Below, piece after piece: positions 46,456 through 64,000 of a stretch of DNA of 64,000 nt (the first letter of the stretch is position 1; each line of letters opens with the position of its first letter). A program made the translations under genes and the position numbers. The DNA is taken from assembly GCF_044647545.1 (NCBI RefSeq), contig NZ_CP172818.1; one strand, given 5' to 3'. This DNA is from Escherichia coli. Its GTDB lineage: Bacteria > Pseudomonadota > Gammaproteobacteria > Enterobacterales > Enterobacteriaceae. The notes below the pieces were generated by a model. The model searched no databases. It had not been told where the DNA came from and was given only the letters and a program-made list of their open reading frames with translations.

Positions 46456-47391
46456 TTATGAAGTGGTTTTTACCTGTTCTCTTAACCAAGTAATAAATGC
46501 CTCAATTTTTGGCCACTGCCTGCCCGGTAATGTGGTGATGTAATAATGCTGATGGCATTTCACCGTCATATCGCCAAACGGCGCGACGAGCTCACCACTG
46601 GCAAGCCTTTTTTGTACCAGGCGTTTTCTTCCCATCGCTACCCCAATATGATTCATCGCAGCGATAACAGCTAAATCAGAACGATCAAAGCCAATCCCAG
46701 AAGATGTCGGCAAATTAACCGCATAATGTTGCGCCCAACTATGCCATTCATCCGTACCGGAGTCGTTGCTCCATGCCTGTCTGTCATGGAGCAACGAACA
46801 GTGGCGCAGGTTAATTACCTGGTTGGTTAAAGCATGTCTTTGAGCGTATTCCGGGCTACATACAGGCAAGATTTCTTCATCCATCAGAAAGTGATGAGCC
46901 AATTGCGCTGACGGCGCATCATCAAAGTAGATCGCCAAATCGATTCCGGCACGTTGCAAATTGACATTGTCATTACCAGTGAGCACGGTGAGCGAAATAG
47001 ACGGATATCGGCGTGTAAAGTCACCTAATGCGGGCACCAACCAGCATTGGGCGATAGAGGGCCGGGAATACAGCGTTAACGTTCCCGATAATTCCTGATT
47101 TTTGATATCAAGAATTTCCTGGTTCAGGGTATCCAGCGACGATTTTAGCGCCCAATAAACGCGTTTCCCCTCGTGCGTTAATTCCACTTTGCGATGGGAA
47201 CGAACAAACAACTGAATACCTAATTCTTCTTCCAGATGATTGATACGGTGACTTACCGCACTGGGGCTCAGCGACAATTCCTCTGCCGCAAGGGCGAAGG
47301 ACTGATGCCTGGCAGCCACTTCAAAAGTATGCAGTTTTGATAGTTGCCAGCCGTTAAGCAGTCGATTTCTTATTTCACGAAGGGGTTCCAT
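46456..47391 (-). CDS. dsdC: LysR-type activator of D-serine utilisation
   Basis: 311 aa from MEPLREI; N-terminal HTH plus LysR substrate-binding domain; divergent from dsdXA. Confidence 0.9.
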   Translation of the reverse strand: MEPLREIRNRLLNGWQLSKLHTFEVAARHQSFALAAEELSLSPSAVSHRINHLEEELGIQLFVRSHRKVELTHEGKRVYWALKSSLDTLNQEILDIKNQELSGTLTLYSRPSIAQCWLVPALGDFTRRYPSISLTVLTGNDNVNLQRAGIDLAIYFDDAPSAQLAHHFLMDEEILPVCSPEYAQRHALTNQVINLRHCSLLHDRQAWSNDSGTDEWHSWAQHYAVNLPTSSGIGFDRSDLAVIAAMNHIGVAMGRKRLVQKRLASGELVAPFGDMTVKCHQHYYITTLPGRQWPKIEAFITWLREQVKTTS

Positions 47392-47608
47392 AATCACCTC
47401 ATTTTTCTCTTAAGTGTAAAAAAATAGCGGCAAAATTTCAGCTGCAAGGTGAACTAAAGTGAACCATATCTCAATTCACCTTCATTTTTAGATGTAAATC
47501 ACTCCCTTGATGCAATTTAGCTCACGTGAAAGGCAAATTTTATCGTTTGTCAGCCTGCGTTGTTTTTTTGTCCAATATCATCAGGTTAATCACAGGGGAA
47601 GGTGAGAT

Positions 47609-48946
47609 ATGCACTCTCAAATCTGGGTTGTGAGCACGCTGCTTATCAGCATCGTGTTAATTGTACTGACCATCGTGAAGTTCAAATTCCACCCGTTTCT
47701 GGCGCTGTTGCTGGCCAGCTTCTTCGTGGGAACGATGATGGGTATGGGACCACTGGATATGGTAAATGCTATTGAAAGTGGAATTGGCGGAACGCTGGGG
47801 TTCCTTGCTGCGGTTATCGGCCTGGGCACGATACTGGGAAAAATGATGGAAGTATCCGGGGCCGCAGAAAGAATTGGTCTGACACTTCAACGCTGTCGCT
47901 GGCTTTCAGCTGATGTCATTATGGTGCTGGTTGGCCTGATTTGCGGCATCACGCTGTTTGTTGAAGTGGGCGTCGTGCTATTGATTCCTCTGGCTTTTTC
48001 AATTGCAAAAAAAACCAATACCTCATTGTTAAAGCTGGCCATTCCGCTGTGTACCGCATTGATGGCAGTGCACTGCGTGGTTCCCCCACATCCGGCTGCT
48101 TTATATGTTGCCAATAAGCTTGGCGCAGATATCGGTTCGGTGATCGTCTACGGTTTGCTGGTTGGGCTGATGGCATCACTGATCGGTGGCCCACTTTTCC
48201 TTAAATTTCTGGGTCAACGACTGCCCTTTAAACCTGTACCCACAGAGTTTGCCGATCTCAAAGTTCGCGATGAAAAAACACTACCGTCATTAGGCGCAAC
48301 GTTATTCACCATACTGCTACCCATTGCGCTGATGTTGGTTAAAACGATTGCCGAATTGAATATGGCGCGTGAGAGTGGTTTGTATACCTTGCTTGAGTTT
48401 ATTGGCAACCCTATTACTGCCATGTTTATCGCCGTGTTTGTCGCCTATTATGTGTTGGGTATACGCCAGCATATGAGCATGGGGACGATGCTCACACATA
48501 CGGAAAATGGCTTCGGTTCTATTGCTAATATTTTGCTGATTATCGGGGCCGGAGGCGCATTCAACGCCATTTTAAAAAGCAGCAGTCTCGCTGATACGCT
48601 GGCAGTTATTCTCTCCAATATGCATATGCACCCGATTCTTCTGGCCTGGTTGGTGGCACTTATTCTGCATGCTGCAGTGGGCTCCGCTACGGTGGCAATG
48701 ATGGGGGCAACGGCAATTGTTGCACCCATGCTGCCGCTGTATCCCGACATCAGCCCGGAAATTATTGCGATTGCTATCGGTTCAGGTGCGATTGGCTGCA
48801 CGATCGTTACGGACTCGCTTTTCTGGCTGGTGAAGCAATATTGCGGCGCTACGCTCAATGAAACATTTAAATACTATACGACAGCGACATTTATCGCTTC
48901 AGTCATCGCTCTGGCGGGCACATTCCTGCTGTCATTTATCATCTAA
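47609..48946 (+). CDS. dsdX: D-serine transporter (GntP family)
   Basis: 445-aa multi-TM ORF. Confidence 0.9.
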
Positions 48947-48963
48947 GCGCAAAGAGACGTACT

Positions 48964-61710: not shown

Positions 61711-61763
61711 GATTAATAACCTCGAAATTTTTATAAATTGGGAGCCAGAAGCCCCCGTTAATA

Positions 61764-63014
61764 TCAGATGGCGTGGTTTTGCTTCATTGCAGCAATTTCA
61801 TCGTCGCTATAACCCAGCTCCTGCAATACAGCAGCGGTATGTTCACCTAATAGCGGCGCAGCTTTAATATCCGGCGTAAAGGCAGAGAATTTCATTGGAC
61901 AACCAACTGTCAGATATTTTCCACGCAACGGTTGTTCCACTTCGACAACACTGCCACTTTGGCGCAAAGAGGGATCAAGTGAAATTTCTTTCATACTTAA
62001 AACCGGTGCACAAGGAATATCAAACTGAGTCAAATAGGCCACAGCTTCATGTTTATCAATAGTGACAGTGTATTTTTCGATTTCAGCAAAAATATCGAAA
62101 ATATGTGGCTGTCGGGCATGGGCTGTACTGTATGCCGGATCGGTAATCCATTCTGGTTTGCCGATGGCTTTACAGGTGTTTTCCCAGTTTTGCTCCTGAA
62201 TAGTGAAATAAATATAGGCATTAGGATCGGTTTCCCAGCCTTTACATTTCAGGATCCAGCCAGGCTGACCACCACCCCCCGCATTACCACCGCGGGGAAC
62301 TGCATCACCAAATGTGCCATTCGGATACTGCGGGTATTCTTCCAGATAACCCAATTTATCGAGACGCTGCTGGTCGCGTAATTTCACGCGGCAAAGGTTC
62401 AACACGGCATCCTGCATTGACATGGTCACTCGTTGCCCACGCCCCGTTTTTTCGCGATGCAGCAAAGCAGCAAGTAAACCGATCAGTAAATGCATTCCGG
62501 TGTTGCTGTCACCCAACGCTGCAGCGCTTACCAGCGGCGGACCGTCCCAAAAACCCGTAGTAGATGCCGCGCCACCCGCTGCCTGAGCAACGTTTTCATA
62601 GGCTTTTACATTCACATAAGGCGAACACTCATCAAACCCTTTGATCGAACCAAAAATCAGACGTGGATTGATTTCTTGAATATGCTCCCAGGTGAAGCCC
62701 ATATGATCAATGGCCCCAGGATGAAAGTTCTCGACTAAGATATCAGCTTCGCGGATCAGCTTTTCCATTACCTCTTTGCCTTCCGCTGTTTTGGTATTTA
62801 ATTCAATAGAACGTTTGTTACTGTTAAGCATGGTGAAGTAAAGCGCATCGATATCAGGAATATCTCGCAGCTGGTGACGCGTTACGTCACCAACACCGGG
62901 ACGTTCAATTTTAATGACGTCAGCGCCAAACCAGGCCAGCATTTGAGTACAAGATGGGCCAGATTGCACACCGGTGAAATCGAGAACTTTAATTCCTTGA
63001 AGTGGAGTTGACAT
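61764..63014 (-). CDS. frc: Formyl-CoA:oxalate CoA-transferase
   Basis: 416-aa family III CoA-transferase, paralogous to yfdE. Confidence 0.9.
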
Positions 63015-63525
63015 AGCAATACCTATTAGTTAATTAAATATGTGTTAATTTAGCGTTTATTTAAGACATAACGCCTCTATAAATAATCCGCAAAATATCG
63101 TCGTAGCTGCACTCGATATTTTTAAATTCCTGTATCAAGTACTGAAAATCATTTCATCGCTACTTCCAATTCCTTTCTGCATGGTAAGTAGTGAGGACGA
63201 AAAGAAGAATATGATAAATATTGGTTCGCGGTAATCAGAGAGAGCCGCGACATTTGTGATGTTATTCTTACAACTGTAAGAAGCGCCAGTGATTTACAAG
63301 TAAGGGTATGATTACGCTTTTTAAAGCGTACCATAAAACATAACATAATAAATGATTTGTGATAACACGGGATTATTGCGGTTTACTTTGAGGAAGATAA
63401 AATTCGAGTTTATAGAACCGCGAGCGCCAAATAATTTTATGGCCACAACCTGTCGTATTGTGGCCATAAAAAATTGTCGGCTGGAGGGAGTAAAATCCTT
63501 TACCTCAATATATTGCCTGTCAGCT

Positions 63526-64000
63526 TTAGTTCACAAACAGTGCTTCGCTATCGACGATGATTCCATCTTCCGCACCTTTAAGCGCCAGGTTTGCCTCGTA
63601 GTATTGCTTTTTATCAAGCAGTTTCTGCGCATCAGCAAGTGCATTACGAGTCTGTTTAAGCGGCATCAGATATTGGTTTTCCATTACACCAACACCGGCC
63701 AGGCGAAGCTCTTCCATTGCGCCCTTTTTATCCCCTTTCGCCATTTTTTCGTTGGCAATTTTTATCGCGGCTTCTTTTTCGGGTGTCGCTACATAACTCT
63801 CAGAAATTCCGACAGATGCATTAATGACAATATATTGGTCATCATTGACATTGGTCTTTTTACCTGGCTTTGCGAACTTTGCCCATTCGGTACTATCATC
63901 AGACAGCAAAGCGGAAGCTTCGTTGGTCAGTTCTTTTGCCTTTTCCGGATCGCCATGAAACAGAGCCAGGCGCGCTACCTGCACGTCACGCATCGCATAT
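63526..64000 (-). CDS. yfdX: YfdX-family periplasmic protein (partial; N-terminus beyond window end)
   Basis: 155 aa of C-terminal sequence in frame to the window edge; first gene of the yfdX-frc-oxc-yfdV-yfdE cluster. Confidence 0.75.

Follow-up and report, generated by a model that had tools for sequence, protein, structure and literature searches.

Do the twelve genes that close the 64,000-nucleotide stretch of Escherichia coli DNA analysed here (contig NZ_CP172818.1; hereafter 'the window') form a single accessory island, or do they have separate histories? They run from dsdC to yfdX (46456-64000), spanning genes for D-serine catabolism (dsdCXA), an efflux pump (emrKY), the two-component system EvgS/EvgA (evgAS) and oxalate metabolism (yfdE-yfdV-oxc-frc), and an initial annotation of the sequence described them as one contiguous accessory cluster beside a prophage site. 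This locus, like its control by EvgA and the variable nature of dsdCXA, is already textbook E. coli biology. Our analysis favours, with a probability of about 0.8, a canonical E. coli neighbourhood composed of two evolutionary units: a variable dsdCXA segment (46456-50295), and an old, horizontally moved block – here called the EvgAS cassette, and comprising emrYK, evgAS, yfdE-yfdV-oxc-frc and yfdX – that was later fixed in the species.

The two units differ in their frequency among E. coli strains. Of 5,426 complete E. coli genomes, 5,384 (99.2%) have the cassette over at least 80% of its length, and evgAS has been reported in virtually all E. coli (PMC4283999, PMC5706723), whereas dsdC-dsdX is intact (at least 80% present) in only 2,696 (49.7%). 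Because of this difference of 50% versus 99%, 'accessory' is an apt term for dsdCX and the wrong one for the evgAS block, which is core at the species level. Of the features by which genomic islands are usually recognised, sporadic presence is confined to dsdC-dsdX, atypical composition and codon usage are found in the cassette (dsdCXA codon usage is not atypical), and tree incongruence with varied contexts in other taxa is found for the cassette. For tRNA genes the picture is mixed: relatives of the cassette lie near a tRNA-Gly in Yersinia and near ssrA in a Rahnella-like genome, but in E. coli it is dsdC that lies close to a remnant of the tRNA gene argW (~100 bp), and the cassette starts 4 kb further on. 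No integrase is annotated within 46456-64000, the two cassette ends share no direct or inverted words of 10 nt or more, and no insertion sequences (IS) or attachment-site (att) repeats bound the cassette. Because neither an integrase nor flanking repeats bound it, the cassette is not a classical tRNA-integrated island.

One alternative is that dsdC through yfdX, 17.5 kb in all, integrated at argW as a single island, which would account for the contiguity of the genes, their start ~100 bp from the argW att remnant and next to a prophage remnant, the GC content of the entire stretch (below that of the core half of the window), and the entirely different genes that follow argW in Salmonella and Citrobacter. 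We nonetheless regard it as highly improbable, as dsdCXA and the cassette differ in composition, in codon usage and in frequency, and no integrase lies within 46456-64000. Linkage separates them too, with no dsd genes beside evgAS in eight non-Escherichia contexts, and homology to Yersinia starting at window position 50411, ~10 nt inside the 3′ end of emrY. Moreover, the argW-dsdCXA region is a hotspot at which csc sucrose genes replace dsdCX (PMC4366372, citing Moritz & Welch 2006 and Jahreis et al. 2002), and such a swap leaves the cassette untouched: in a genome deposited as E. coli but standing as a separate species-level representative (L002), csc genes for a fructokinase, an invertase and a LacI-type repressor occupy the place of dsdCX and the cassette is undisturbed. 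The single-island reading was rejected on these differences in composition, frequency and linkage, and with it the initial annotation's treatment of the cluster as one unit.

Base composition sets the cassette apart from its surroundings. The GC content is 52.9% in the left part of the window (1-25400), 48.8% in dsdCXA and 42.7% in 50400-64000, where intergenic regions are at 34-37%. The GC content at third codon positions (GC3) is 0.37-0.43 (mean 0.402) for the eight complete genes emrY to frc, compared with 0.567 for 30 core open reading frames (ORFs) of the left part, and all eight fall below each of the 30 (Mann-Whitney U=0, p=9e-6). Codon-usage distances from the core set give z values of 1.1-2.3 for the cassette genes, frc excepted (0.0), and of -0.8 to 0.3 for the dsd genes, whose mean GC3 of 0.50 is intermediate. 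The region is thus not uniform in composition with the core genome, and the AT-richness previously remarked upon in evgS, emrKY and the intergenic regions is borne out, although it is not confined to them: yfdE, yfdV, oxc and frc share the low GC. We suggest that the low GC of the cassette is the remaining trace of a foreign origin.

It could be argued that AT-richness is simply a by-product of gene function and uninformative on origin, given that emrY, yfdV and evgS encode membrane proteins and are poorly expressed without induction. This is barely credible, because GC3 is likewise 0.39-0.42 in evgA, a regulator gene, and in yfdE, oxc and frc, whose products are soluble enzymes, because the 30 core ORFs above all cassette genes include membrane transporters, and because the phylogenetic and contextual evidence is independent of composition. 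Membrane-protein content was accordingly rejected as the cause of the low GC, the soluble genes being equally low.

Comparison with other enterobacteria shows a break in synteny at argW. Salmonella diarizonae, Citrobacter rodentium and Citrobacter freundii all retain aroC-prmB-smrB-sixA-fadJI-yfcZ-fadL-mlaA-yfdC and an intact argW, after which the genes are unrelated: an integrase, a tailspike and pgt genes in Salmonella; a LysR regulator, a lactamase-fold protein and an autotransporter in C. rodentium; and a methyl-accepting chemotaxis protein, slp and a resistance-nodulation-division pump in C. freundii. Synteny is therefore not conserved across the enterobacteria beyond argW.

Among the relatives of the cassette sampled outside Escherichia, the closest are in Yersinia. 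E. coli EvgS is 81% identical to its Yersinia relative and 54-55% identical to those of Klebsiella and Enterobacter, and EvgA shows the same pattern (94% versus 79%). The rcsDBC locus, used as a control, behaves in the opposite manner, with RcsC at 60%, RcsD at 47% and RcsB at 89% identity to Yersinia, against 85%, 82% and 97% to Enterobacter, and only 3.2 of its 13.7 kb being alignable to Yersinia at the DNA level. A neighbour-joining tree built from 16 EvgS homologues places E. coli with L002 and the Yersinia group in 100 of 100 bootstraps, and another clade contains Serratia, Enterobacter, Klebsiella, Winslowiella and a Rahnella-like sequence, intermixed.

The cassette itself is nearly intact in these yersiniae. 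The 81% version of EvgS occurs in Yersinia frederiksenii, alsatica, vastinensis and canariae, with all nine genes collinear, and the Yersinia locus L080 aligns with E. coli in a single blastn alignment of 13.9 kb at 79% nucleotide identity, the encoded proteins being 81-96% identical. The surroundings are unlike those of E. coli: one flank carries ars genes and a tRNA-Gly, the opposite flank has unrelated genes, and dsdCXA is absent. These Yersinia loci carry the name EvgS through the NCBI annotation pipeline, and no description of them was found in the papers searched. A statement made in 2017 that EvgS has no close orthologues outside E. coli, even in Escherichia (PMC5706723), is now out of date; a search of the literature for evgS in E. 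albertii, E. fergusonii and E. marmotae found nothing relevant.

More distant versions recur in varied settings. The EvgS protein search returned full-length relatives at 99%, 81%, 64%, 57%, 54-55% and 43-44% identity, the non-Escherichia hosts being assigned from flanking proteins. The 57% version lies in a Rahnella/Ewingella-like genome, in which the same nine genes stand right after smpB, ssrA and a D5-type primase (L081 4901-20308), with slp on one side of the cassette and hdeD-hdeA on the other; in E. coli, slp, hdeD and hdeA are part of a distinct acid fitness island. At another locus (L085 13761-18271) hdeD-hdeA follow yfdX, and yfdE, oxc and frc are fragmented with evgAS, emrKY and yfdX intact. 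Versions at 54% are found both on a 378-kb Klebsiella variicola plasmid, with evgAS through yfdX between IS elements, and inside a Serratia integrating conjugative element, which carries evgAS. Further hosts of EvgS are Winslowiella, Enterobacter cancerogenus, Yersinia rohdei (44%) and the chromosome of Klebsiella pneumoniae (43%, without the oxalate genes). A one-genome-per-species scan with EvgS was not used for the distribution and carries no information on absence, its listed matches being mostly unrelated hybrid kinases aligned over the C-terminal half of EvgS (residues ~680-1071; one of them, L037, is the rcsC locus). It did supply the rcs control loci as well as L002. Against L002, L080, L081 and L083 alike, no cassette protein has diverged more than EvgS (91% versus 94-99%, 81% versus 83-96%, and 54-57% versus 63-93% for the other proteins), and Frc is the most conserved (91-99%); the divergence of EvgS fits the published weak purifying selection on the sensor (PMC5706723).

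These comparisons bear on a second alternative, in which the cassette is ancestral to the Enterobacterales and inherited vertically with many losses, its low GC reflecting relaxed or regulatory (H-NS-type) selection. Such a history is consistent with the retention of the nine-gene order in distant taxa, the degree to which cassette GC follows that of its host (41-51%), the co-divergence of the cassette with its flanks within Escherichia, and the weaker purifying selection on EvgS than on barA and arcB (PMC5706723). We consider it improbable, because the EvgS tree contradicts the species tree with full bootstrap support, joining Escherichia to a subset of Yersinia and separating it from Klebsiella and Enterobacter, in contrast to the expected pattern at the rcs control locus. 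In addition, each host examined has the cassette at a different chromosomal site, copies reside on an IS-flanked plasmid, in a conjugative element and in an ssrA-linked island, and the 81% version is restricted to some Yersinia species, with Y. rohdei having the 44% version.

An old horizontal origin of the emrY-yfdX block is thus supported by sequence comparison, and a minimum age is indicated by L002, in which an unlinked core locus is at most 91.3% identical to any complete E. coli. The L002 cassette lies between dsdA and ypdI-yfdY-lpxP, and is 88-94% identical to that of E. coli per gene, with flanking dsdA and lpxP at 92% and 89%. Because it is in the same place, at an identity equal to that of the flanks and of the core locus, the cassette appears to have been in place before the split from L002 and to have been vertically inherited since. 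The proposal of an older horizontal acquisition therefore stands for emrY-yfdX – on tree incongruence, the 79% Yersinia block, varied contexts that include a plasmid and a conjugative element, and co-divergence with L002 – and fails as a statement about a single island.

Several observations weigh against this interpretation. Neither an integrase, att repeats nor IS elements bound the cassette in E. coli. Its GC varies with the host, being 41-42% in Escherichia and Yersinia (41% in Yersinia), 48% in the Rahnella-like genome and 51% in Klebsiella, which implies long residence everywhere and points to no particular donor or direction of transfer. E. coli and Yersinia share 79% identity over the cassette, only a moderate excess over the 74% found in the alignable parts of a core locus, so that the transfer is ancient and unequal evolutionary rates contribute to the pattern. 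Lastly, the taxonomic distribution derives from a protein search and about ten sampled contexts and is not a census.

The regulatory sites of the cassette provide a further view of its unity. The EvgA box is reportedly an 18-bp inverted repeat with the consensus TTCYTACA-NN-TGTARGAA, attributed to Masuda & Church (2003). Scanning the window with this consensus (TTCYTACANNTGTARGAA), which receives indirect support from PMC3720670, gave exactly two sites with no more than two mismatches in 64 kb, where ~0.06 are expected; literature searches for the box sequence gave no match. Both sites are intergenic and upstream of published EvgA targets. Measured to the gene starts, box 1 is 174 bp upstream of emrK and 224 bp upstream of evgA. 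When the intergenic DNA between these genes is aligned for six taxa (mean column identity 59%), ATTCYTAC in the left half-site and TGT in the right one are unchanged throughout against a diverged background, a clean phylogenetic footprint. The candidate proposed at this position in the initial annotation is thus upheld as a predicted EvgA box, both by a match beyond chance and by six-taxon conservation, although the perfect second box had been overlooked. Box 2 is kept at the same place in L002 (0 mismatches) and in Yersinia L080 (1 mismatch), and box-like sites are also present before yfdX, outside the window (L001 33839-33856 with 1 mismatch and 33801-33818 with 3 mismatches). The Yersinia L080 alignment is interrupted exactly at the last base of box 2, and ends ~24 bp past the yfdX-promoter box. 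The regulator genes, the three target units and the predicted boxes form one conserved physical unit, with interspecies homology ending at or just past the boxes. A scan of the emrK-evgA region for the sigma-70 consensus found fewer matches than in shuffled sequences, and gave no useful promoter call.

Previous work is in agreement with these assignments. EvgA-bound inverted repeats precede yfdX and yfdWUVE (PMC3720670), the emrK and yfdX promoters have been used as EvgA reporters (PMC5706723), and emrKY expression is EvgA-dependent (PMC6393483). EvgS is activated by mild acid and alkali metals and signals to EvgA by phosphorelay in K-12 and Shigella (PMC6393483, PMC5706723), but its responsiveness differs among E. 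coli strains (PMC5706723), and activation by these signals cannot be assumed for the allele in the window. Frc and Oxc confer oxalate-dependent acid tolerance, and YfdE is an acetyl-CoA:oxalate CoA-transferase (PMC3720670, PMC6393483).

We envisage the two units functioning as follows. In dsdCXA, located at the argW recombination hotspot, DsdC would activate dsdXA for uptake and deamination of D-serine. In the cassette, an EvgS/EvgA phosphorelay would control three direct target units, each preceded by an 18-bp inverted-repeat EvgA box: the emrKY efflux pump, the frc-oxc-yfdV-yfdE genes with their proton-consuming oxalyl-CoA decarboxylation, and the periplasmic protein YfdX. On the basis of the literature, EvgS would sense mild acidity and alkali metals and phosphorylate EvgA, which would bind the boxes and switch on the divergent emrK/evgA promoters, the frc operon and yfdX. 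The cassette probably moved as a whole, and would have entered Escherichia by horizontal transfer from, or been shared with, a lineage related to that which supplied some Yersinia; its gain would have preceded the split of E. coli from a sister lineage of ~90% identity, and would have been followed by fixation. There is a slightly better than even chance that the cassette is portable and pre-wired, a 'sensor plus regulon' in which EvgS/EvgA and three target promoters with their boxes move together between Enterobacterales, the wider EvgA network (ydeP-safA-ydeO to GadE) having been recruited only later. If so, a single acquisition would equip a recipient with an inducible response comprising efflux, oxalate metabolism and a periplasmic protein.

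The features of the region are listed in Table 1. Several complete E. coli chromosomes match the 17,545 nt of 46456-64000 at 100% identity, and gene names were taken from the RefSeq annotation of a record 100% identical to the window. The ORF map gives the order dsdC(-) dsdX(+) dsdA(+) emrY(-) emrK(-) evgA(+) evgS(+) yfdE(-) yfdV(-) oxc(-) frc(-) yfdX(-), which is that of K-12, and all twelve genes are at the positions first assigned to them, as judged from ORFs, the RefSeq annotation of identical records and NCBIfam models. DsdC, DsdX, DsdA, EvgA, EvgS, YfdE, YfdV, Oxc, Frc and YfdX exceed curated NCBIfam equivalog cut-offs, and EmrY and EmrK are above the DHA2 and EmrA/EmrK subfamily cut-offs and below the EmrB- and EmrA-specific ones, as expected for paralogues. 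The dsdC gene is divergent from dsdXA, and the reading frames are uninterrupted with full-length equivalog matches. The emrY and emrK genes overlap at 51938, and their products, a DHA2 permease and an EmrA/EmrK-family adaptor, correspond to those of an EmrAB-type tripartite major facilitator superfamily (MFS) pump. The evgA gene (end 54130) is directly upstream of evgS (start 54135), and EvgS contains two periplasmic SBP_bac_3 domains followed by HisKA, HATPase, receiver and Hpt domains (Pfam). Frc, Oxc, YfdV, YfdE and YfdX are all present in the order of the yfdXWUVE operon of PMC3720670. An Rfam scan of 42000-64000 found no RNA families. Strain MS6198 (NZ_CP015834.1) matches 46456-64000 at 100% identity in two pieces that span ~777 extra bases, suggestive of an IS-sized insertion somewhere in this region of that strain.

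Table 1. Coordinates of genes, predicted sites and other features between the argW remnant and the end of the window.
Feature	Position	Strand	Evidence or comment
argW tRNA-Arg(CCU) 3′ remnant, 15 nt, attR-type copy CTGCAGGGGACACCA	46342-46356	+	matches 3′ end of intact L001 argW
dsdC, LysR-type activator of dsdXA	46456-47391	-	NF007491 597 bits vs cut-off 316; mechanical ORF reaches 47397
dsdX, D-serine transporter (GntP family)	47609-48946	+	NF007395 940 bits vs cut-off 618
dsdA, D-serine ammonia-lyase	48964-50295	+	TIGR02035 814 bits vs cut-off 368
dsdA/emrY convergent spacer, GC 55.8%, inverted repeat GCAGCATCGC...GCGATGCTGC	50296-50399		left edge of AT-rich cassette
EvgAS cassette (emrYK, evgAS, yfdE-yfdV-oxc-frc, yfdX)	50400-64000 + ~335 bp past window end		13.9 kb, GC 42.7%
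emrY, DHA2-family MFS efflux permease (EmrB paralogue)	50400-51938	-	TIGR00711 571 bits vs cut-off 230
emrK, periplasmic adaptor (EmrA paralogue)	51938-53101	-	TIGR00998 (EmrA/EmrK) 486 bits vs cut-off 391
Predicted EvgA box 1, TTCTTACGCCTGTAGGAT	53275-53292		2 mismatches; divergent emrK/evgA promoter region
evgA, NarL/FixJ-type response regulator	53516-54130	+	NF007419 438 bits vs cut-off 251
evgS, hybrid sensor kinase	54135-57728	+	NF007420 2884 bits vs cut-off 1995, residues 1-1197 of 1197
yfdE, acetyl-CoA:oxalate CoA-transferase	57784-58929	-	NF008511 881 bits vs cut-off 522; function from PMC3720670
yfdV, auxin-efflux-carrier-family transporter	59003-59947	-	NF007384 714 bits vs cut-off 404
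oxc (yfdU), oxalyl-CoA decarboxylase	60016-61710	-	TIGR03254 1045 bits vs cut-off 739
frc (yfdW), formyl-CoA:oxalate CoA-transferase	61764-63014	-	TIGR03253 785 bits vs cut-off 504
Predicted EvgA box 2, perfect palindrome TTCTTACAACTGTAAGAA	63265-63282		0 mismatches (chance expectation ~1e-4 over 64 kb); 251 bp upstream of frc start
yfdX, periplasmic YfdX-family protein, cut by window end	63526-64000	-	3′ 475 of 633 nt; NF007645 305 bits vs cut-off 256 on partial protein

At the left boundary of the region, the argW remnant lies ~100 bp from the dsdC stop codon, the AT-rich cassette beginning 4 kb further on, and argW is split: its first 40 nt are at 42459-42498, followed by unrelated sequence and prophage DNA, and its last 15 nt are 3.8 kb later. 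An intact argW was detected in the control locus L001, in Salmonella and in Citrobacter, and no intact tRNA gene was found in the whole 64-kb window by ARAGORN, nor any tRNA by Rfam. The split-argW junction is absent from all 5,426 complete genomes of E. coli, and unless a second copy is located elsewhere in its genome, the source strain may lack tRNA-Arg(CCU) argW. The intervening DNA (42516-46341) is an integrase-less prophage remnant of the CPS-53 (KpLE1) type, ~95% identical to K-12, which contains a partial Dam-like methylase gene, yfdN, a yfdO-like ORF, yfdP, yfdQ, yfdR and yfdS, and is without intS through yfdL, torI and most of yfdT; the yfdO-like ORF is full-length (292 aa), its K-12 counterpart being a pseudogene. 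The description of the cluster as lying beside a tRNA-associated island is therefore accurate in that the argW 3′ remnant and a prophage remnant are next to dsdC, but not in implying an intact tRNA in the window.

Apart from these loci, evgAS is also found on E. coli plasmids. About 20 genuine E. coli plasmids of 57-123 kb, most of them predicted to be conjugative, carry evgA-evgS and the upstream region including EvgA box 1 (matching window 53184-57788) at 97-98% identity; in the one inspected, an IncFIB plasmid from raw-milk cheese (L092, NZ_CP042902.1), the evgAS segment is beside IS1 copies and an ariR/ymgB-type acid-response gene. Such plasmid-borne evgAS appears to be a recent capture of the chromosomal sensor system.

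Two other parts of the window have atypical composition. A chaperone-usher fimbrial operon at ~25400-32000, with GC3 up to 0.72, lies between smrB and sixA, which are adjacent in Salmonella diarizonae, C. rodentium and C. freundii, and the operon appears to be another lineage-specific insertion, GC-rich at third positions. The very AT-rich interval between fadL and mlaA (38800-40400) corresponds to yfdF, with a GC content of 34.8% and an ORF at 39516-40223 with GC3 of 0.28. FDAARGOS_497 has 188 bp more in this interval and an annotated protein of 415 aa, compared with a longest ORF of 235 aa in the window, and the 235-aa ORF has no NCBIfam match.

Several well-described systems provide points of comparison. 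The K-12 MG1655 locus (b2364 to b2375 region) has the same genes, order, orientation and EvgA box positions at ~97-98% nucleotide identity, but K-12 has the full CPS-53 (KpLE1) with intS and an intact argW, whereas the window has only yfdM′ to yfdS and the split argW. The argW-dsdCXA island, or csc-dsd hotspot (PMC4366372), corresponds to the same variable dsdCXA by argW, with csc genes taking its position in L002; the island as described extends no further than dsdCXA, however, and the adjoining evgAS cassette is near-universal in E. coli. The EvgS/EvgA regulon (Masuda & Church 2002, 2003; Kato et al. 2000, via PMC3720670 and PMC6393483) has direct targets adjoining evgAS, which the boxes described here fit, and there is no functional difference from it; what is added is comparative: the boxes accompany the block in Yersinia, and its homology stops at them or shortly beyond. 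In the Y. frederiksenii group the boxes are conserved in a locus of 41% GC at another chromosomal site. KvgAS and KvhAS of K. pneumoniae and BvgAS of Bordetella share the sensor architecture and regulator family of EvgAS, but EvgS identity is 43-55%, and the K. pneumoniae chromosomal homologue is without the oxalate genes and emrKY, unlike the K. variicola plasmid copy, which retains evgAS through yfdX. A cluster of yfdX and hdeDB accompanies kvhAS and hdeA accompanies kvgAS, the hdeA cluster having been speculated to be horizontally acquired (PMC6394985).

The added value of these findings is modest and comparative. Its AT-rich part is sharply bounded, from the emrY stop codon to the EvgA box of the yfdX promoter, is near-intact in some Yersinia, and recurs on plasmids, in conjugative elements and beside ssrA. 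This pattern offers an explanation of why the EvgAS acid-resistance circuit looks E. coli-specific, and the natural EvgS variants – 54-91% identical and associated with the same target promoters – could help in the study of what EvgS senses.

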